Shown piece by piece: positions 1 through 14,508 of a stretch of DNA of 14,508 nt. The DNA comes from Gemmatimonas sp. (lineage in GTDB: Bacteria; Gemmatimonadota; Gemmatimonadetes; Gemmatimonadales; Gemmatimonadaceae). The stretch covers positions 1-14,508 of the forward strand of contig JANNVQ010000047.1 in NCBI GenBank assembly GCA_031414535.1, in the 5' to 3' direction. The position numbers and the translations under genes are program-made. Within the stretch, counting starts at the first letter, position 1. The number at the start of each line of letters is the position of its first letter. The notes below the pieces were generated by a model. The model was not told where the DNA came from. It saw only the letters and a list, made by a program, of their open reading frames with translations, and searched no databases.

Positions 1-567
1 GGAAACGTATAGCGTCAAGACTGCGAAGTAGTTGTTAATGTAGTCAAGCATACAAACTGACGCATTGACTTCAGAGCTCAATTGACCAACCATCACCGTA
101 AAGAAAATCATAGACAGACCGGCTCCAAAAAATATTTTGTCGATCATTTCTGGCATGTTCCAAAGTGATGCGTCTTCGAAAGCATGTCCGGCGTTGTTGA
201 TGGCAAAGACAACAAGCACAACCATGAACTGACGGCCCAACAAGAAACGTTTGAGATTGTCACCCGTGTAGGCAACTACATTGCACAAGTAGGCTTTTGG
301 GTGCGTCTCCTTGTACAGTTCTCTGTCCACGATTTCAAGACCAACGATAGATGCTTGGCTTCCCTCAATCATCGTAAGCCAAATGATACAAACCCAAATA
401 ACAACAAATGCAAGGGCAGGGTGAACATCTTCCGCGATCTTTGTTTGTCTGGTAAAGATAACACCCATAATCAGAGCAATTGAGAATATGAGTAGAAGCG
501 TCGAGTAGAGCGACTTGAAAAAGTAGAAGAAGTCGAAGCCCTCGGCATCTGGGTTACGATGTGACAT
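1..567 (-). CDS. SIT: Silicic acid (silicon) transporter, diatom SIT family; 5' part, continues off the left edge
   Basis: Hand translation of complement(1..567) gives 189 codons with no stop: MSHRNPDAEGFDFFYFFKSLYSTLLLIFSIALIMGVIFTRQTKIAEDVHPALAFVVIWVCIIWLTMIEGSQASIVGLEIVDRELYKETHPKAYLCNVVAYTGDNLKRFLLGRQFMVVLVVFAINNAGHAFEDASLWNMPEMIDKIFFGAGLSMIFFTVMVGQLSSEVNASVCMLDYINNYFAVLTLYVS. SIT hallmarks are EGXQ (366-355), GRQ (237-229), GQL and CMLD (54-43), with alternating hydrophobic helices. The ATG is in AAA-ATG context, and the nearest upstream in-frame stop is at 666-664 with no ATG in between. Absent from the supplied ORF track. Confidence 0.95.
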   Translation of the reverse strand, partial: MSHRNPDAEGFDFFYFFKSLYSTLLLIFSIALIMGVIFTRQTKIAEDVHPALAFVVIWVCIIWLTMIEGSQASIVGLEIVDRELYKETHPKAYLCNVVAYTGDNLKRFLLGRQFMVVLVVFAINNAGHAFEDASLWNMPEMIDKIFFGAGLSMIFFTVMVGQLSSEVNASVCMLDYINNYFAVLTLYVS

Positions 568-2070
568 TTTCGAAGCGTGTTTTCGTTCTTTCGATCTGTT
601 TACACCGTGATTATTAGTTGTGATAGAAGCCGCTGTTTTTGCGCTTCTGAAGTAATTGTGAGATCATTAATGGCGAAATGGCATGGTAAAATGAATGCAC
701 AATATCGAAGAAGAACTAGCGATTGACCTGTCGGCCGAAAGTCTATGAAATATGCTCTGCCGCTAAAATAACAGTTAAAAATGATAATCTCATTATCATT
801 GCAAGTATTTACCGTTATGGTGAGCGTCCAACAGCTATTATAACTCCAATGAGAGAAATAAAGAGCAAATAGTGAAGTTGCGACGGTTGCGGAGGCTGTT
901 ATGTTTACCGTTACGGTGGACTTCGGACCCTTTCTGACGGGTAACCCCGGCATCAAGAAGTCTACAGAACAGTACAAGTAGTACCGTCCTTGTACTAGCT
1001 CTCTGGCTAGCTAGAGAGAGTATACTGGAGTACGTCTATACAAGTACTGGCGGGAAACTTGTGTGATCCGTAATTAGCGGTTACGAATGCCCACGAACGG
1101 AAGCGATGATACATCAAAAATGCTCGCACAATATATAAAATAAAAAATTATTTTAACATATTCACAATATTATCTACAGTACAAGTAGGAATTCTACGAC
1201 GGTATCAGGACAATGAATGACGTATTCATTCGTACCTGGTACTTGTACTAGAGTAGTCGTGTTCGAAAAGGGAATCACGGGAGTACTTGTGTACTTGTAC
1301 AAGTACTTGAAGCGATGAGAAGTACTAGTACGGTACAGTACTACCGGTAGTACAAGTACCTGCACAGCTAGTACCTACAAGAGTACTTTGTACTTGTACT
1401 CTTGTATAAATATTTTTTCATTCCGATCGTCCGCACGGACATTAAGGCCTGTCCGTTCGAGTACTTATTGGACGTCTTATGGAATCCGCCGTCTTAAAAA
1501 GGATTGGCTACTGAAACCGTGCCGCCACATCGAGGACACACTGTGAGAAAGCTTTTGATGTAAGACATATTGCATGAAAGGCAAAAATAACTTTTATTGA
1601 ACAAATCAGAATATGTGAAACAGAAATGAAAATATTGACATATCATAACAAATAAACTTCATTTTTTGTACTTGATTCTTTGTGAGAGTTTTGAGACACT
1701 TCATCTTTCTACTAGAGGTTTATGTAGTGCAAACTTCAATTCCAATCATTAAGCTGAGATAGCTAGTCAACAATCAGAAAAAATACTCAGAGGCTAGCTA
1801 TGGCTATGGATGTGGCACTGCGTGGCACTTGTAAACAACAATTTTTTGTTTTTGTCAAGATTGTGTATAGCGAATCCTGAGCATTTCAAAAATCCCCGTA
1901 CAACTTCACGAACCTGATTTCTTCGTACGATCCCCAGTATTCAGTACTGTTAAAGTACAAGTAAGAAATGCCTAACACCCGCGCGCGGTCAGGCACCCGT
2001 AGTTATCCACAAACGACTTTAAGTAGTTGTAACTCCGGAACGACTTGCTCGAATTTCAAAATAAAACATA
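568..2070. other. AT-rich eukaryote-like non-coding region upstream of SIT (promoter/intergenic)
   Basis: No convincing ORF. GC is low (e.g. 13/60 in 1621-1680), with poly-A/T runs and low-complexity GTAC tracts. It lies 5' of the SIT start codon. Confidence 0.75.
972..1400. repeat. GTAC-rich low-complexity tract with short perfect palindromes
   Basis: About 23 GTAC tetramers counted by hand in about 430 bp. Perfect 16-bp palindromes GTACTTGTACAAGTAC (1291-1306) and GTACTACCGGTAGTAC (1338-1353). Near-palindrome CTCTCTGGCTAGCTAGAGAG (999-1018). Confidence 0.8.
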
Positions 2071-3992
2071 GTCGTCACTAGGCCGGGTAAATCATCGGTG
2101 CCATACGCCCGCTGCGCCTCGGCCACCTTCTTGTGCTTCTTGCCCCGCGTGCGTTCCGCGTCGCGCTCGGTGCTGCCGTCGCGCGCATCGGCCACGCGCG
2201 TGGAGAAGCGCACTTGGTCAAGCGACTTCGTCACGCCAGCCGGCACGATACCGTGGTCCTTATTGTGCGCTTCTTGCACGGCGCGACGGCGCGCCGTCTC
2301 GTCCAGGCAGCGCTGCATAGAACCGGTGATGCGATCGGCGTAAAATATGGCGCGTCCTTCCACGTGGCGTGCAGCGCGGCCCGTTGTTTGAATCAGCGAG
2401 CGGTCCGAGCGCAAGAAACCTTCTTGGTCGGCGTCGAGAATCGCAACCAGCGAGACTTCGGGGAGGTCAAGGCCTTCGCGCAGCAGGTTGATGCCGATGA
2501 GCACATCGAACTCACCGAGCCGCAGGCCACGAATGATTTCCATGCGCTCAATGGTCTCGATGTCCGCGTGCATGTAGCGGACGCGCACACCCACCTGCGA
2601 GAGATAATCTGAGAGATCTTCCGCCATCCGCTTGGTGAGCGTCGTGACGAGCACGCGCTCGCCCTTCTTCTCGCGCAGGCGAATCTCGTGCAGGAGATCA
2701 TCCACCTGCCCTTTCACCGGGCGAATCTCGATGATGGGGTCAATGAGTCCCGTCGGACGGATGATCTGCTCGACCACCACGCCTTCGCTGAGCTTGAGTT
2801 CGAGCTCGCCGGGCGTGGCGCTCACGTTCACCGCCCGCGGGGTCAGCCCCAAGAACTCATCGAACATCAGCGGGCGATTATCGAGCGCGCTGGGCAGGCG
2901 GAACCCGTACTCGACCAGCGTTGTCTTGCGCGCACGATCGCCATTGAACATCCCGCCAATCTGCGAGAGCGTGACGTGCGACTCGTCCACGACGACGAGG
3001 AAATCGTCGGGGAAATAGTCGAAGAGCACCGCAGGGCGCGCGCCAGGGGGACGACCCGCGATGACGCGCGAGTAGTTCTCGATGCCGGGGCAGGTGCCGA
3101 TCTCGAGCAGCATCTCGATATCGAAATTCGTACGGCTCTCGAGCCGCTGGGCCTCCAGCAACTTCCCCGCTTCCTTCAGCACCTTCAGGCGATCCACCAA
3201 CTCGAGACGAATCTCTTTCACGGCCTTCTGAATGGTCGGACGGTCCGTGACGAAGTGCTTGGCCGGATAGATCGCCGTGCGCTGCAGCGGAGCAATGGTG
3301 TGGCCCGTCAGCGGATCAATCTTGCTGATCTTCTCAATCTCATCGCCGAACATCTCGATGCGCACGCCCTGTTCTTCATACGCTGGCAGGACTTCCACCG
3401 TGTCGCCACGGACACGAAACGTGCCGCGCTCGAAGGCCACATCGTTGCGGCCATACTGAATAGCGACCAATGCCTTGAGGATGTCGTCGCGGGCGATGGT
3501 CTGCCCCACATGCATCTGCACCATGTTGGCGCGATACGTCTCGGGATCGCCGAGTCCGTAGATGGCGGACACCGTTGCCACGATAATTACGTCGTCGCGC
3601 TCCATCAGGCTCGACGTCGCGCGCAGGCGCAAACGGTCAATGTCTTCATTGATGGAGCTGTCCTTCTCGATGTACGTGTCCGACGAAGGCACGTACGCCT
3701 CCGGCTGGAAGTAATCGTAGTACGAGACGAAATACTCGACGGCGTTGTTGGGAAAGAATCCCTTAATCTCACCGTAGAGCTGTGCCGCCAACGTCTTGTT
3801 GTGCGAGAGTACCAGCGCCGGCCGCCCCCACTGCGCGATGACATTGGCCATCGTCATCGTCTTCCCCGAGCCTGTGACGCCAAGCAAGGTCTGAAAGCGA
3901 TCGCCGCGATTCAAGCCAGCGACCAGCTCCGCGATAGCGCGAGGCTGGTCGCCGGCGGGGGCGAAGGGGGCTTGGAGGTCGAAGGATGCCAT
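2019..3992 (-). CDS. uvrB: Excinuclease ABC subunit B, 3'-truncated at about 2071; the last ~16 codons read into foreign DNA
   Basis: Motifs [10 protein letters not shown] (Walker A), [22 protein letters not shown] (beta-hairpin region), [30 protein letters not shown] and GRAAR. The C-terminal UVR coiled-coil is absent. ATG at 3992 preferred over GTG at 3998. Confidence 0.96.
2060..2085. other. Eukaryote/bacterium junction (composition break inside the uvrB 3' end)
   Basis: Abrupt switch from AT-rich (...TTTCAAAATAAAACATA) to GC-rich sequence (42/60 GC in 2101-2160). The UvrB-like sequence ends at about DDLPGLVTT and is followed by the non-UvrB tail [16 protein letters not shown]. Confidence 0.85.
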
Positions 3993-4002
3993 AGGCACAA
4001 TG

Positions 4003-4053
4003 GACGGAAGACGGATGACGGATGCAACCAGCGTCCGTCATCCGTCATCCGTC
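4003..4053. repeat. Heptamer-array inverted repeat 1, (GACGGAW)3 hairpin
   Basis: Left arm GACGGAA GACGGAT GACGGAT GC (4003-4025), loop AACCA, right arm GC GTCCGTC ATCCGTC ATCCGTC (4031-4053). 23-bp arms with 2 mismatches. Confidence 0.93.
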
Positions 4054-4057
4054 GGGT

Positions 4058-4501
4058 TTACATCCCCGGGAACAGCGCCCGGTCCCACGGGATGCCGCCT
4101 AGGATTAGGGAGAGCGTCATGAAGGCAAAGACCACGCCAACCCTGTGCCGAACAGCATCGGTGGGACGGCTCTTCGCGGTGATGCTGCCGATCGTAATCA
4201 GGATGGCAGCGAGGACCATCATCGTCGGGTGCTCGACGACGACCTTCCGAAGTGCCGGGTCGGCCATCGTGGCCTCCATATCGCGCATCGCCGCCTTTAC
4301 GACGGGGCTGTTCATCAGCAGCAGCAGTCCGAGCAGCAGCTGGAGGTGGACGCTACCCATGAACATCGCCAGAGCACGGCGCGCGGCGACGAAGGGCCGG
4401 TCACCGCCGAGGCCTTGGGCAGTGCGCACGACAGCCAGCACGCCGAGGACGAGCACGACCCAGCGGAGAACGTTGTGCGTATGAAGGAGAGCGCTGTACA
4501 T
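4058..4501 (-). CDS. Conserved 4-TM membrane protein of unknown function, possibly cytochrome b-like
   Basis: 147 aa with four hydrophobic segments, H7/H9, H52, an EHP motif (H91), H119 and a C-terminal IPW. Same strand and codon style as its neighbours. Confidence 0.85.
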   Translation of the reverse strand: MYSALLHTHNVLRWVVLVLGVLAVVRTAQGLGGDRPFVAARRALAMFMGSVHLQLLLGLLLLMNSPVVKAAMRDMEATMADPALRKVVVEHPTMMVLAAILITIGSITAKSRPTDAVRHRVGVVFAFMTLSLILGGIPWDRALFPGM

Positions 4502-4506
4502 GGGGA

Positions 4507-4635
4507 GACGGGACGGATGACGGAGGACGGATGCTGACCGCGGACGTAGGGAAAGTTAGTCGCGGATGGCAATTTTGGTGCGCCGGAAAGCCTTGGCCAC
4601 ACTTCATCCGTCATCCGTCATCCGTCTTCCGTCCA
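4507..4635. repeat. Heptamer-array inverted repeat 2 with an inner spacer of about 70 bp
   Basis: Left arm GACGG GACGGAT GACGGAG GACGGAT G (4507-4533). Right arm C ATCCGTC ATCCGTC ATCCGTC TTCCGTC CA (4605-4635). Confidence 0.9.
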
Positions 4636-4645
4636 GTTTCAGGGA

Positions 4646-6832
4646 CTAATCTTCTTCCGCACTCAACCGTTCGCGCCGTGCCACCTCTGAGACTCCCTTC
4701 ACCCTCCGCGCCGCCTTCACGATGCGCTCGAGATGCGCGAGGTTCTCGACTTCGACGATTGCCGCCCCGGAGAATCGGCCATCCGTCGTTTTGAGCTCTA
4801 ACGAGCGGATGTCAGTGCCTGTGCCGCTGACGGCGGCGGCGAGGTCCGCGTAGAGCCCACGCCGGTCCGTGCCCTCGATTGCGAGTCGCACGGTAAAGCG
4901 CTCCCCCGCTGTTTCCTGCCAATCAATCTCCAGCCGGCGCTCCGGCTCGTGCACCAGCGTCAGGAGATTTGGGCAATCATCACGGTGAATGCTCACGCCG
5001 CGGCCGCGCGTCACGTATCCCACCACCTTGTCGCCCGGTACTGGTTGGCAGCACTGCGCATAGCGCACAAGCAAACCGTCGGCTCCCTGGATGCGCAGGC
5101 CTTTGGAATGTCTTGGCCCGCGCATACGGTCAATCAGGCGCTCAATCGGACTCGGCCGCAGGGCCGCATTGTCCGCTTCATCGAGGTCCGGATAGATCGC
5201 CTTCAGAAGCTGGGTGATGTTGATGTCACCCGAGCCGATGCTCGAATAGATGTGGTCCGGCCCATTCAGCTTGAGGGCCTCCACGCCGCGCGCGAGTTCC
5301 GCGTCAGTGAGCTTGGTGTGCTTCCGGCGCCTAAGTTCCCGGTCGAGAATCTCCTGACCCACGGTCACGAAGGTCTTCTGCTCTTCGTTGCGGAGCCATT
5401 GGCGAATCTTATGCCGCGCGCGGCCGGTGTGCACGTGGGCGAGCCAGTCGCGGCTCGGGCGTGCATTTGGCGAGCGGATGACCTCAACAGTCTCTGAATT
5501 CCGCAGCTCGCGCGAGAGCGGCACAATGCGCCCATTCACGCGCGCGCCCTGCGTGTGCAAGCCAAGCTGCGTGTGGACCGCAAAGGCGAAGTCAATCGGG
5601 GTCGCGCCCTTGGGTAACTGAATCACATCCCCATTGGGCGTGAAGACGAAGATTTCGTCCTGATACAAGTCGAGCTTCAGAAACTCGAGGAACTGATCCG
5701 GCGTCTCGGCGTCAAGCTGCAACTCCAACACCTGGCGGAACCACGCGAGGTGACGATCCAGATCCTTGCCGCCTTTGCCGTCGCCCTTGTAGACCCAGTG
5801 CGCCGCGATGCCGTACTCCGCCGTGCGATGCATGTCGCGCGTGCGAATCTGGATTTCAAACAGCGTGCCTTTGGGCCCGAACACCGTCGTGTGCAGTGAC
5901 TGATAGCCGTTACTCTTGGGCGAGGCGATGTAGTCCTTGATGCGCTCCTGCAGCGGCGTCCACGAGCCGTGAATCACACCCAGCGCGTGATAGCACTCGG
6001 GGATATTCTCCACCGTTACGCGGATGGCGTAAAGATCGTAGATTTCGTCGTAGGGCTTCGCACGCTTCTCCATCTTCTTGTGGATGGACCACAAGTGCTT
6101 GGGCCGCCCGCTGACCTCGTGCACCACGACCCCAGCCTCCCGCAGGCGACGCTCCAGCGGCTCCGCCATCTCGGACGTGAGCTTGTCGCGGTCGGCCCGC
6201 GTCTGCGCCACCATCTTGGCGAGCGTGCGGTACTCGTCCGGCTCCAGCCACTTGAAGGCGAGATCCTCGAGCTCCGCTTTCACGGAGTTCAGACCGAAGC
6301 GATGCGCCATCGGAGCGTACAGGTCGCGCGTCTCGAGCGCAATCCGGGTGCGCTTCTCCTCGGGCATCCACTCCAGCGTCCGCATGTTATGCAAACGGTC
6401 CGCGAGCTTCACCAGAATGACGCGCACGTCCTTGGCCACGGAGAGCAACAGCTTGCGATAGCTCTCCACCTGCCGCTCTTCGCGCGAAGCCATGGGCAGA
6501 TGGCCAATCTTCGTCAGGCCATCCACAATCTGCGCGACCTCACGCCCGAACTCGCGCTCCACATCCTCAACCGTGTACGCGGTGTCCTCTACCACGTCGT
6601 GAATCAGCCCACTGGCCACGGTGATGGAGTCCAACTGCAGATCGGCGAGAATCTTCGCCACCTGCACGCAATGCGTCACATAGGGGTCGCCGTTCCGGCG
6701 CGTTTGCCCCGCATGCGCCTTCTCAGAGAAGCGGTAGGCCTTGGCCAACAGGTCCACGTCCAAGCGCCCCGTCGCCGAATCGGCGGCCAGGTCCCAGTTG
6801 GGGATGATCTCGGAGAGGACGGGAGCGGACAC
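4646..6832 (-). CDS. rel: Bifunctional (p)ppGpp synthetase/hydrolase (long RSH, Rel/SpoT family), about 728 aa
   Basis: Intact HD hydrolase (HAGQTR, HDVVEDT, KLADRLHNMRTL). Synthetase motifs GRPKH, DLYAIR, RIKD (the RxKD type of bifunctional enzymes), KSNGYQSLH, EIQIRT and GIAAHWVYK. Also TGS, a CC...H...C zinc finger and an ACT domain. Start placed at GTG 6832, because the ORF-track extension to 7378 runs through repeats and radC. Confidence 0.95.
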   Translation of the reverse strand: MSAPVLSEIIPNWDLAADSATGRLDVDLLAKAYRFSEKAHAGQTRRNGDPYVTHCVQVAKILADLQLDSITVASGLIHDVVEDTAYTVEDVEREFGREVAQIVDGLTKIGHLPMASREERQVESYRKLLLSVAKDVRVILVKLADRLHNMRTLEWMPEEKRTRIALETRDLYAPMAHRFGLNSVKAELEDLAFKWLEPDEYRTLAKMVAQTRADRDKLTSEMAEPLERRLREAGVVVHEVSGRPKHLWSIHKKMEKRAKPYDEIYDLYAIRVTVENIPECYHALGVIHGSWTPLQERIKDYIASPKSNGYQSLHTTVFGPKGTLFEIQIRTRDMHRTAEYGIAAHWVYKGDGKGGKDLDRHLAWFRQVLELQLDAETPDQFLEFLKLDLYQDEIFVFTPNGDVIQLPKGATPIDFAFAVHTQLGLHTQGARVNGRIVPLSRELRNSETVEVIRSPNARPSRDWLAHVHTGRARHKIRQWLRNEEQKTFVTVGQEILDRELRRRKHTKLTDAELARGVEALKLNGPDHIYSSIGSGDINITQLLKAIYPDLDEADNAALRPSPIERLIDRMRGPRHSKGLRIQGADGLLVRYAQCCQPVPGDKVVGYVTRGRGVSIHRDDCPNLLTLVHEPERRLEIDWQETAGERFTVRLAIEGTDRRGLYADLAAAVSGTGTDIRSLELKTTDGRFSGAAIVEVENLAHLERIVKAARRVKGVSEVARRERLSAEED

Positions 6833-6838
6833 GCACGA

Positions 6839-6868
6839 AGTATAGGGAGGAGCGAAGAGCGATGGAAA
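6839..6868 (-). promoter_or_regulatory. Candidate sigma70 promoter for a leaderless rel transcript
   Basis: Minus strand reads TTTCCA-N18-TATACT-N6-GTG (TATACT at 6844-6839). No Shine-Dalgarno sequence before the start. Confidence 0.5.
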
Positions 6869-7032
6869 GGAGCGAGGTTTGAATAACGAGGTTTGAAAAG
6901 CGAGTTTGGAGGTCCGAAGGTCAAAGGAGATGACCCTCCCCACCTTCCCCTTCCTCCCTTCCCGTCTTCCGTCCCTATCGCTCTTCGTTACTTCGCTCTT
7001 CCATTTCGCTTTTCGCTCCTCGCTCTTCGCTA
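6850..7032. repeat. Degenerate inverted heptamer arrays (GAGCGAR / YTCGCTC family) around a purine/pyrimidine-skewed core
   Basis: Left (6850-6918): GAGCGAA GAGCGAT GGAAAG GAGCGAG GTTTGAA TAACGAG GTTTGAA AAGCGAG TTTGGAG GTCCGAA. Right (6977-7032): ATCGCTC TTCGTTA C TTCGCTC TTCCAT TTCGCTT TTCGCTC CTCGCTC TTCGCTA. Includes CCGTCTTCCGTCC (6962-6974), the reverse complement of 4002-4014. Confidence 0.85.
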
Positions 7033-7710
7033 GAGGAGTCCTAGCTCGGCAAAGGACACATACCGCCCTCTCCCAATCACCACATGATCGTGAATCGGGA
7101 TGTCCAAGAGCCGTCCCGCCGCCACGAGTTGGCTCGTAATGGCTCGGTCGTCTGAGCTTGGATTCGGGTCCCCACTGGGATGGTTGTGGACCAGCACGAT
7201 ACTGGCCGCTCGCTCGGCGATGGCTTCGCGGAACACCTCGCGCGGGTGCACGAGGCTTGAGTTGAGGATACCGCGGCTCACCAGCACGTCGCGCTCCAAC
7301 CGATGCTGCGCGTCCAACACGGCCACGTGGAACTCTTCCACGGTGAGCGCCTCCAGCCGCGGACCGTAGTAGCGCCACACATCGCGCGGCCCCCGCAGCG
7401 GCTCGCCTTCATCCGTGGCCTCCGCCGCGAGGCGGCGTCCGACCTCCAGCGCCGCGTGGATGGCCAGTGCCTTGGCCTCCCCAAGCCCATGCACGGCCGT
7501 GAGCGTGGCCACCGGCATCTGCATCAGTCGCCGCAGCGAGCCCCCAGCACGGTGGAGGATCTGTTGCGCCGAGTCTGAGGCTGAGTGCCCCGCTCCCCCG
7601 GTGCCGATGAGAAGCGCAAGCAGTTCCGTGGTGGTCAGCGCCTGCGCACCGTGTGCACGAAGGCGTTCCCGCGGGCGGTCAGCGGGTGGGAGTTCGAGGA
7701 TGGAGGGCAC
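7030..7710 (-). CDS. radC: RadC / UPF0758 family protein (HhH plus JAB/MPN domain)
   Basis: PRERL...GAQALTTTELLALLIGTG N-terminus, GLGEAKA helix-hairpin-helix, VHPREVF, HNHPSGDPNPSSDD JAMM motif and DHVVIG. Start is GTG 7710 or TTG 7719. Confidence 0.95.
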   Translation of the reverse strand: MPSILELPPADRPRERLRAHGAQALTTTELLALLIGTGGAGHSASDSAQQILHRAGGSLRRLMQMPVATLTAVHGLGEAKALAIHAALEVGRRLAAEATDEGEPLRGPRDVWRYYGPRLEALTVEEFHVAVLDAQHRLERDVLVSRGILNSSLVHPREVFREAIAERAASIVLVHNHPSGDPNPSSDDRAITSQLVAAGRLLDIPIHDHVVIGRGRYVSFAELGLL

Positions 7711-7775
7711 GCGGGGCAAACTGCGCGCTCATCAGGCTGGCGCTGACACCAAACTATTGCTCACGTCAGCAAATG

Positions 7776-7838
7776 GACGGAAGACGGATGACGGATGCGA
7801 ACCGCCCTGCAGTTCGCATCCGTCATCCGTCTTCCGTC
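7776..7838. repeat. Heptamer-array inverted repeat 3: perfect 27-bp stem, 9-nt loop
   Basis: GACGGAAGACGGATGACGGATGCGAAC (7776-7802) is the exact reverse complement of 7812-7838. 7772-7798 is identical over 27 nt to 3999-4025. Confidence 0.95.
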
Positions 7839-7843
7839 ACCAG

Positions 7844-11107
<3,264 letters not shown>

Positions 11108-11114
11108 TCTGGCT

Positions 11115-11699
11115 TCACTCGGTGGTAGTACGGTATAGCCCGTGAGCAGCGATATAGTCGGCGACGGCATCGGGCACGAAGCCCCGAATGCTGCGTCCAG
11201 CTCCCACACGAGTGCGGATCTCCGTGGCGGAGATGTCCACGCGTCGCGTCGGCAGCGAGCGGGCCCGGAAGCCCGTCGGCAGCGCCGGAGCTTCCGATCC
11301 ACGTCCCGCCACTGCAACCTGCACGAGCAAGGCTAATGCCTCAGGCTCGCGCCATTGTGGCAGGGTGGCCGCGGTGTCTGCTCCCATTAACAAGAACATT
11401 TCAACGTCTGACCGGGCAGCCTGTATAGCCCGCACGGTATCAATGGTGAAAGATAACCCACCACGCTCCACCTCCGAAGCATTCACTTGCAGTCGGTGAT
11501 CTGCGCTTGCGAGACATGCGGTCATCGCCAAGCGGTGAACGGGCGCCGACATCTCCACCCCACGCTTCAGGGGTTGGCGAGCAGCGGGTACCAGGATGAG
11601 CTCGTCTAGCTCGAGGGCGTCCACTGCGTCTAGGGCCAGCAACAGGTGCCCGTTGTGCGGCGGATCAAAGGTCCCGCCGAGGATCCCTACGCGCGGCAC
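11115..11699 (-). CDS. nadD: Nicotinate-nucleotide adenylyltransferase
   Basis: GILGGTFDPPHNGH (HxGH motif), SFTIDT, LLMGAD, LPQW and ISATEIR. Start placed at GTG 11699, 8 nt after the bamD stop. Confidence 0.95.
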   Translation of the reverse strand: MPRVGILGGTFDPPHNGHLLLALDAVDALELDELILVPAARQPLKRGVEMSAPVHRLAMTACLASADHRLQVNASEVERGGLSFTIDTVRAIQAARSDVEMFLLMGADTAATLPQWREPEALALLVQVAVAGRGSEAPALPTGFRARSLPTRRVDISATEIRTRVGAGRSIRGFVPDAVADYIAAHGLYRTTTE

Positions 11700-11707
11700 A
11701 CGCGGGC

Positions 11708-12484
11708 TCAGGGCCGGACGACCGCGGTGGAGTCGGCGGTCGGCAGTCGGCACGTGCTGAGGACGTCGGCATCCGTGGGGAACCCGGCACGCAACGCCGA
11801 GCAGAGCTCCGCGGCGTCTTCCTTGTAATCGAGCGCCGGCAACCGATAGACGCGCACCATCTGGAGCATGGCCAAGCGCGCCTTATCCGTGTTGGGATAG
11901 TTCGCCACGACGTCGCGGAAGTAGAGAATGGCGGAGTCGTAGGCCCGGCGACGCACATAGTGCATTCCAGTCTCGAAGTCCTTCTCAGCCAGCCACTCAT
12001 CGAGTTCGGCGAGGGCCTTGAGGCTAGAGTCCGCATAGGGCGAATCGGGGAATACGCCAGTCACGAGGCGAAACTGCGCTTGGGCAAGAATCGCGTACTG
12101 CGGATCAAGCGAGGGGCGCCGCCACATCTCGCGATACGAGCGTGCTGCCATGAACATCGCGTCGTCGGCGAGGCTGTCGTTGGGAAACTGCTCAGCCAGC
12201 CGATTGAAGCTCTGCGCCGCCAACAAGCGCTCGTCGTTGTTCCGTCGCGCCTGCCCGAGATACCAATGCGCGAGCGGCAAGAGGGTGTCGCGCGTCGGCA
12301 AATCGAAGGTCAGACGCTCGAACGCCGTCACCGCGTTGCCCCACTTCTCGTTGTCGTACTGCGCCTTGCCCGCCGCGAACAGAGATTGCGCGGACGGAAA
12401 GTTCCGCACATTGAACGGGCGGAAGCATCCCCCGAGCAGGGAAAGCGAGAGGAGAGCGACCAGCGACTTGCGAAGTGCGGACAT
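11708..12484 (-). CDS. bamD: Outer membrane protein assembly lipoprotein BamD (YfiO/ComL-like, TPR)
   Basis: Signal peptide with lipobox LGGC (Cys20), TPR-like helices, and the patterns FPDSPYA, LAEKDFETGMHYVRRRAYDSA and YPNT. Confidence 0.88.
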   Translation of the reverse strand: MSALRKSLVALLSLSLLGGCFRPFNVRNFPSAQSLFAAGKAQYDNEKWGNAVTAFERLTFDLPTRDTLLPLAHWYLGQARRNNDERLLAAQSFNRLAEQFPNDSLADDAMFMAARSYREMWRRPSLDPQYAILAQAQFRLVTGVFPDSPYADSSLKALAELDEWLAEKDFETGMHYVRRRAYDSAILYFRDVVANYPNTDKARLAMLQMVRVYRLPALDYKEDAAELCSALRAGFPTDADVLSTCRLPTADSTAVVRP

Positions 12485-13437
<953 letters not shown>

Positions 13438-13441
<4 letters not shown>

Positions 13442-14508
13442 TCGCCCCCCCGACCGATGGAGCGATACGTGAATCCCTGCGCCTTCATCTTCTCGGGGTC
13501 ATACAAATTGCGGCCATCAATTACAACGGGTTGCTTGAGCTCGGTCTTCAAGCGTACAAAATCCGGAAACCGATACTCATTCCAGTCCGTGACCACCACC
13601 ATCGCATCGGCGCCCTGCGCGGCCTCATAGCTTGAGCGCGCGTAGCCGATGGTGTTCCCGATACGACGTTCCGTCTCGTGCATCGCCGCCGGATCGTGCG
13701 CCACCACACTCGCACCCGCACCCAGCAATTGCTCGATGAGCACGAGCGCCGGGGATTCGCGCATGTCGTCGGTGTTGGCTTTGAAGGCCAAACCCCAGAG
13801 CGCGATGCGCTTCCCCCGCAGTTCGCCGCCAAAGACCTCGGACACCTTCTCAAACAGGCGCTGCTTCTGACGCTCGTTCGCCGACTCCACGGCGCGCAGG
13901 ATGCCCATCGGGGCACCGCGCTCCTCAGAGGTGCGCATCAAGGCCTGCACGTCCTTGGGGAAGCAGGACCCTCCGTAGCCGGGGCCCGGGAAGAGAAACG
14001 CCGACCCAATGCGCGAGTCAGAACCGATGCCCTTGCGCACGAGATCCACGTTCGCGCCGACGCGTTCGCAGAGGTTGGCGATTTCGTTCATAAACGAGAT
14101 GCGGGTCGCGAGCATCGCGTTGGCCGCGTACTTGGTCATCTCCGCCGAGGGAATATCCATGAAGATGACCGGCTTGCCCGTGCGTACGAACGGCGCATAG
14201 AGCTCGCCCATCCGCTCGCGAGCGAAGTCCGTCGCTACGCCAATGACGACGCGGTCTGGCTTCATGAAGTCATCCACTGCCGCGCCTTCCTTCAAGAACT
14301 CCGGGTTGGAGCACATATGGAACGGTACTTTGGCGAGTGGCTTGATGACCGCCGCCACCTTGTCCGCCGTACCCACCGGGACGGTGGACTTGGTGACGAC
14401 CACCACTTCCGTGGCAGCATGCTTTCCGATGGTCTCTGCCACGGCGAGCACGTACTTCAGGTCCGCCGAGCCATCCTCATCGGGGGGCGTGCCGACGGCG
14501 ATGAAGAT
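13438..14508 (-). CDS. ugd: UDP-glucose 6-dehydrogenase; 5' end lies outside the window
   Basis: The frame is open to the window edge ([20 protein letters not shown]...). Motifs [25 protein letters not shown], catalytic GGSCFPKD and [15 protein letters not shown]. Confidence 0.95.

Follow-up and report, generated by a model that had tools for sequence, protein, structure and literature searches.

Does a contig on which a diatom-type gene lies directly against a bacterial one record a transfer of DNA between domains of life, or an error of assembly? The window considered here is an entire contig (C47, 14,508 nt) of a Gemmatimonadaceae genome of 3,695,498 nt in 58 contigs, scored as 98.41% complete and 1.89% contaminated. 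At one of its ends the 5' part of a silicon transporter (SIT) gene, together with its upstream DNA, adjoins a uvrB gene whose own 3' end is missing. The original prediction placed a chimeric contig first and regarded a real transfer as much less likely. This ranking is supported by a second contig of the same genome (C46) and by contigs from two public metagenome runs (X1 and X2) that leave the window at base 2073, and we consider it very highly probable that C47 is chimeric. The junction is not a biological feature.

The larger part of C47 (86%) is bacterial DNA. All genes from base 2073 onward lie on the minus strand and are ordinary bacterial genes of the Gemmatimonadaceae. Besides uvrB (2073..3998, codons 1-642, identified from Pfam domains and from its relatives), open reading frames and Pfam matches delineate relA/spoT (4646-7378), secA (7844-11317), a bamD/YfiO-like gene (11708-12484), a gene for a NAD-dependent epimerase (12485-13441) and one for a UDP-glucose/GDP-mannose dehydrogenase that is cut by the contig end (13438-14508), while a 147-aa open reading frame at 4058-4501 belongs to no family in the Pfam scan. 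The loci closest to this uvrB in a collection of species representatives are nearly all from metagenome-assembled genomes (MAGs) of Gemmatimonadaceae or Gemmatimonadales, with identities up to 90%, and the encoded protein is 84-93% identical to its counterparts in relatives from the same genus. The block had been described as free of tRNA genes and integrases, which agrees with our scans: it contains 0 tRNA genes, and no integrase family was detected among the 7 open reading frames scanned.

The other side of the junction is of a different nature. Bases 1..567 (minus strand) hold the beginning of a silicon transporter gene, 189 codons that run from the ATG at 567 to the contig end, where the gene is cut off. 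The fragment matches the Pfam family Silic_transp (PF03842) with an E-value of 6.3e-68, residues 16-188 being aligned to profile positions 7-180 of 513, and its score of 229.8 bits lies far above the curated cut-off of 26.8; the coverage of the profile is limited by the end of the contig. A search for homologues among longer proteins gave 248 matches at E<=0.001 from 905 candidates. PF03842 was found in all 120 of the 248 homologues that were listed, most of which are 450-575 aa long, and the few among these listed matches that carry an organism name come from diatoms (Chaetoceros, Eucampia). The Atlas clusters nearest to the fragment are 100% eukaryotic and most often assigned to Bacillariophyta. 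These results bear out the initial identification of a diatom-like SIT, and the accompanying warning against naming a bacterial SIT was right. The best identity is 70%, hence the diatom species from which the fragment comes is absent from the collections searched. Upstream of the SIT gene, bases 568..2072 comprise non-coding DNA of low G+C content (0.31-0.49) with scattered repeats of the GTACTTGTAC and GTACAAGTA types, in which we distinguished the repeat families D1-D3 and the inverted pairs I1 and I3; the one open reading frame of 125 aa in this region (600-977) has no Pfam match.

The transition between the two parts is abrupt. In 200-nt windows the G+C content stays between 0.31 and 0.49 up to base 2000, reaches 0.575 at 2001-2200 and 0.69 at 2101-2300. 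A two-segment likelihood fit places the best change point after base 2080, positions 2072 and 2070 being at most 0.15 log units worse, and separates a left segment of 0.409 G+C from a right segment of 0.623; the compositional flip originally noticed near base 2070 is thus reproduced, with a change point at 2070-2080. Divided at the junction itself, bases 1-2072 have 41% and bases 2073-14508 have 62% G+C. Across the genome, the mean G+C content of 7302 windows of 1 kb is 0.638 (sd 0.023), and only 4 of them fall below 0.50, all 4 within C47 1-2500, the next lowest value being 0.539. The tetranucleotide distance to the genome is 0.813 for bases 1-2072, as compared with 0.25 for the adjacent window 2073-4144 and with a maximum of 0.355 among 211 other windows of 2072 nt. 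C47 is also the only one of the 58 contigs with an end of low G+C content. This compositional step is far beyond chance. It coincides with an equally abrupt switch of taxonomic affinity, from a diatom SIT on one side to Gemmatimonadaceae genes on the other, as is characteristic of chimeric contigs.

The fate of the uvrB gene at this boundary allows the question to be decided. On the minus strand its open frame runs from 3998 to 2019 and reaches ...DDLPGLVT at residue 642, after which 17 unrelated residues and a stop codon follow; this spurious tail (2019..2072, minus strand) is encoded by diatom DNA. The window protein contains the Pfam domains UvrB_inter, Helicase_C, UvrB and ResIII, and the UVR domain is absent at E<=0.01. 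A protein search of the genome revealed, right at the beginning of contig C46, a further small match to UvrB. Positions 1-121 of C46 are 100% identical to window positions 2193-2073 on the minus strand (blastn, 121/121), and from the next base onward the two sequences differ, so that the break lies exactly between bases 2073 and 2072. Similarity to UvrB had been said to cease at DDLPGLVTT; that it ceases there is correct, with the amendment that according to C46 the true end lies one residue earlier, at ...DDLPGLVT. Read in the uvrB frame, C46 repeats the same 40 residues up to this point and then continues with 44 residues (RLEEEMKTAAKNLDFESAARLRDELFDLKAAMGERAEKTPRARR) and a stop codon, and these 44 codons match the UVR domain (PF02151, 2.3e-11). 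The search for an intact uvrB 3' end, which had been recommended as a check, therefore succeeded within the same assembly. The restored protein has 642 + 44 codons, i.e. 686 aa, and the open frames over uvrB in nine loci from the same genus span 684-965 aa, 684-706 aa in six of them. With the helicase core and the interaction domain in the window and the UVR domain in frame on C46, all the parts that define a UvrB protein are present. The organism has a complete uvrB gene, divided only by the assembly and not truly truncated.

The sequence that follows uvrB on C46 leads to the same conclusion. It encodes tsaE (4.4e-35), a TsaD-family tsaB-like gene and a GNAT (rimI-like) gene, and the first 1.3-1.5 kb of C46 are collinear, directly behind the uvrB match, in all nine loci from the same genus (L003-L011), so that the order restored by joining the uvrB end of C47 to C46 agrees with that in the relatives. 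The same data thus contain an uninterrupted continuation of the gene that starts exactly at the breakpoint, as expected if C47 is chimeric. The bacterial chromosome runs from C47 into C46; at this point the assembly graph forks, and the diatom DNA belongs to a side branch. A transfer in the reverse direction would mean that the contig derives from a diatom nuclear genome into which 12.4 kb or more of Gemmatimonadaceae DNA was recently inserted beside the SIT gene. The joined contig is all that speaks for it; the bacterial block is compact and intact and, where C46 overlaps it, is identical in 121 of 121 nt to the free-living genome, C46 carries on its gene order in the way found in 9/9 relatives, and the uvrB contigs of X1 and X2 proceed at 2073 into other sequence rather than into the diatom part. 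We regard such an insertion as the least probable of all explanations considered here, to the point of being negligible.

Public metagenomes provide a view of the junction from a different assembly. Parts of window 1-4200 occur in 16 public runs, of which four (X1-X4), all from one study of freshwater sediment, are the richest, with shares of 0.90, 0.79, 0.39 and 0.37 of the sampled words; the data for these four are Logan contigs, not raw reads. Record 4 of X1 (2457 nt) begins with 427 nt that correspond to window 2499-2073 with 0 differences and extends for a further 2030 nt off the window, and record 13 of X2 (616 nt) matches window 2496-2073, again with 0 differences, before leaving it for a further 192 nt. 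Beyond 2073 both extensions are presumably identical to C46. The diatom part is found on separate records (record 3 of X1, covering 588-1940; records 10-12 of X2, 17-23 of X3 and 25-31 of X4), and among the 32 records listed for X1-X4, beside which 576 more exist, none bridges 2072 and 2073. It must be added that X1 and X2 may be the source data of the window, in which case they represent a second independent assembly and not an independent sample.

The proposal that the two organisms shared a sample fits these data, as runs X1 and X2 contain both the diatom and the bacterial part; in other words, a benthic or settled diatom and a Gemmatimonadaceae bacterium co-occur in the same freshwater-sediment runs. 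On the other hand, the proposal that even coverage would refute an artefact would be misleading in X1, where the contig depths on the two sides are 12.3 and 13.2 (one figure per contig) and those of neighbouring bacterial contigs are 12.4; with depths so alike there is no usable step. In X3 the contigs cover 1-617 and 1262-2001 of the diatom part and in X4 they cover 1-1946; neither run has any depth in bins 2101-2380, and both have little elsewhere in uvrB save for conserved motifs. This looks as if the diatom were present without the bacterium, but missing contig cover proves nothing, and we do not count the pattern as evidence. Finally, bin 1961-2100 lacks any depth in X4, contigs from three of the runs (X1, X3 and X4) stop at 1940-1946, and over the last ~130 nt before the junction the Logan contigs show no continuity with the SIT locus. 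A copy of repeat D1 at 1951-1967 probably breaks contigs built with k=31 at this place, and it is conceivable that 1947-2072 represents a further separate piece.

The same observations must be weighed against a real event in the bacterium, in which a minority subpopulation of sediment Gemmatimonadaceae would have acquired nuclear DNA of a diatom, inserted by illegitimate recombination at the 3' end of uvrB, and would have been caught in the assembly before selection removed it. The fact that an assembled contig passes through the junction and the presence of both organisms in X1 and X2 are compatible with such an event. However, the uninterrupted allele is found in the same assembly, on C46, the contigs of X1 and X2 take the unjoined path, and the depth of 13.2 in X1 equals that of the neighbouring contigs. 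A real insertion would require the joined form to be a sizeable allele at least, yet it is neither the form of the chromosome nor a major form of it. Nor is the diatom DNA flanked by recipient DNA on both sides: with base 1, where the contig ends, still within it, only one flank is bacterial, and there is no second junction back to bacterial DNA, no mobile-element gene among the open reading frames scanned and no tRNA in the bacterial block. The piece itself consists of a promoter region and a truncated eukaryotic gene, for which the cell would have no plausible use, and no word of at least 18 nt that could have guided recombination is common to bases 1-2072 and the remaining genome. We consider an integration of this kind very improbable, and even if both directions of transfer are taken together they retain only a marginal share of the probability.

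Returning to the preferred reading of C47 as an assembly chimera, C46 as the true branch, the gene order of the relatives and the contigs of X1 and X2 together indicate that the assembly graph forks at 2072|2073 and that the wrong branch was taken. A short-read metagenome assembly based on a de Bruijn graph would have joined ~2.07 kb of diatom nuclear DNA to a 12.4-kb stretch of Gemmatimonadaceae DNA. The join would have fallen inside the 3' end of uvrB, where the real chromosome proceeds with 44 more codons followed by tsaE, the tsaB-like gene and the GNAT gene. Presumably the assembler continued along the diatom path, while C46, the start of which still overlaps the fork, was output on its own; the resulting C47, being 86% bacterial, was binned with the bacterium.

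The genome bears further traces of how it was assembled. Many of its contig ends overlap by exactly 141 nt, and other ends recur exactly in the interior of a different contig, over 121 nt (C46 in C47), 99 nt (C10 in C5) or 79 nt (C26 in C9); the end of C1 has an exact match of 82 nt in C30, 3 nt from the end of the latter. Overlaps of 141, 121, 99, 82 and 79 nt are the traces of a multi-word-size de Bruijn assembler stepping up to 141. The default word sizes of MEGAHIT include 79, 99, 119 and 141, which the overlaps of 141, 99 and 79 nt fit and the overlap of 121 nt does not, though the latter might be composed of 119 nt and 2 nt of extension. Since C46 starts 121 nt before the fork, it appears that only the diatom branch, and never the true one, was linked at the last word size. 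With a contig depth near 13, any given word of 142 nt would be contained in few short reads, which makes a chance loss of the true link plausible. The steps described here for the assembler at the fork should be read as a sketch.

How the false link arose in the first place is a separate question. Because the contig runs through the junction, some of the input, be it reads or contigs from an earlier stage, must have carried the joined sequence at the word size of the assembler. The first link may go back to chimeric library molecules or reads, one or a few in number; alternatively, it may have been made falsely at a small word size and then passed on to larger ones. The former possibility, a physical chimera formed in the library by ligation or by template switching during PCR rather than an error of the graph alone, is favoured by the very need for such an input at word size 141 and by the lack of similarity between the two parts: no word common to bases 1-2072 and the remainder of the genome exceeds 17 nt, a length reached in 2 cases, neither near the junction, hence no visible repeat that could have misled the graph explains the join. 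Yet interspecies chimeric contigs are reported to be frequent in MEGAHIT assemblies of CAMI benchmark data. CAMI reads are simulated and contain no library chimeras, so the assembler alone can make interspecies joins. A short word shared by both genomes at the fork is likewise possible, given that exact-pattern scans of the metagenome contigs for a 44-nt and later a 24-nt stretch of the sequence flanking the junction on its diatom side gave 0 matches to native diatom sequence beyond it. On balance we lean slightly away from a library chimera as the origin of the artefact, with the two origins not far from parity.

The practical consequences are a matter of data hygiene, since this genome, which a public collection uses to represent its species, carries 2.07 kb of diatom DNA to which its marker-based scores (98.41% and 1.89%) are blind. 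Automatic annotation would derive two false items from C47, namely a "bacterial" SIT fragment and a uvrB with a false tail of 17 residues and no UVR domain. For curation, we propose that C47 be split at 2072|2073, that bases 1-2072 be removed from the bacterial record and the remainder joined to C46 by way of the shared 121 nt, and that neither a bacterial SIT nor a truncated UvrB be annotated. The case also illustrates a cheap check that requires no reads: to seek, in the same assembly, another contig whose start overlaps the sequence that precedes the suspected junction.

It is instructive to compare the two halves of the problem, the transporter and the misjoin, with known systems. Like the members of the diatom SIT family (PMC5129515, PMC5100055), the fragment in C47 matches Silic_transp, and its homologues of ~450-575 aa are called silicon transporters by their sources; it differs from the diatom SITs in comprising the first 189 residues only and in its best identity of 70%. 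The SIT-like proteins (SIT-L) of Synechococcus are the one known case of a genuine bacterial relative of SITs (PMC12506029). SIT-L and the C47 fragment belong to the same wider transporter family; unlike SIT-L, the C47 fragment resides on low-G+C, eukaryote-like DNA and has its best matches among full-length eukaryotic SITs, a contrast drawn from its DNA context and its database matches.

With respect to the misjoin, C47 shares with genome chimerism of the type addressed by GUNC (PMC8201837) the mixture of lineages within one genome bin. GUNC detects chimerism and contamination of genomes, apparently from the lineage of the genes on each contig, and for an approach of this kind one truncated eukaryotic gene on a contig of 14.5 kb would be a very small signal. 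Interspecies joins such as the one described here are common. In the MAG misjoin with which we compared C47, as in C47 itself, the contig with the foreign sequence belongs to a MAG that marker-based quality control lets through, and the attached piece brings in a gene that is not the organism's own; the assembly of C47 bears the marks of a de Bruijn assembler with k=141. Unlike in that case, the foreign piece of C47 is situated at the contig end and is only 2.07 kb long. Moreover, the foreign piece in the compared MAG came from another bacterium, whereas that of C47 is eukaryotic, from a diatom, and for this reason the join is visible as a step of 21 points in G+C content.

Over the SIT coding part of the diatom-type DNA (window positions 1-580), the assembled (Logan) contigs of the four public freshwater-sediment runs, X1-X4, do not match the window at a dozen sites, which fall at 142, 217, 337, 400-454 and 573-579, and the commonest SIT version in these runs is other than the one carried by the window. 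The depth of the run contigs is 20-28 over this coding part, compared with 7-12 over the upstream region. Together, the differing sites and the higher SIT depth suggest that the samples contain several paralogues or haplotypes of the SIT gene, or several diatom strains.

The diatom upstream region contains many repeats of the GTACTTGTAC / GTACAAGTA type, in both direct and inverted orientation, at 960-1400 and again at 1940-1967. Each of the four runs has several contigs that break off at one or more of the positions 1232, 1249, 1290 and 1307-1311. Because the contigs that stop within 1232-1311 carry loose ends unlike one another, the GTACTTGTAC / GTACAAGTA-type motif seems to be a dispersed repeat in the diatom genome. 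Closer to the false join, a contig ends at 1940-1946 in X1, X3 and X4, and the contigs of X4 give no depth in the bin 1961-2100; consequently, continuity of the last ca. 130 nt before the join (1947-2072) with the SIT locus was not seen in the contigs of X1, X3 and X4.

On the bacterial side, the summed contig depth leaps to 360-975 at 2381-2520 in all four runs, a figure that is uninformative on copy number; this stretch of uvrB encodes conserved helicase motifs and is common, with at least 95% likeness, to many other bacteria of the samples. Between uvrB and relA/spoT, the minus strand contains an ORF of 147 aa (4058-4501), for which no Pfam family was found at E<=0.001.

The other end of the window (14508) cuts a UDP-glucose/GDP-mannose dehydrogenase gene. 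An overlap of exactly 20 nt (14489-14508) links this end to the end of C33, another contig of the same Gemmatimonadaceae genome, which is therefore probably the neighbour of the window on this side. Elsewhere in this genome, near-identical sequences of 135-148 nt are found at the ends of contigs C8, C12, C24, C31, C32, C35, C43, C46 (at its end), C53 and C55. Their partners are either other such ends or the interior of C12 or C35. These shared sequences resemble copies of a multi-copy element, or else collapsed repeats, at which the assembly breaks.
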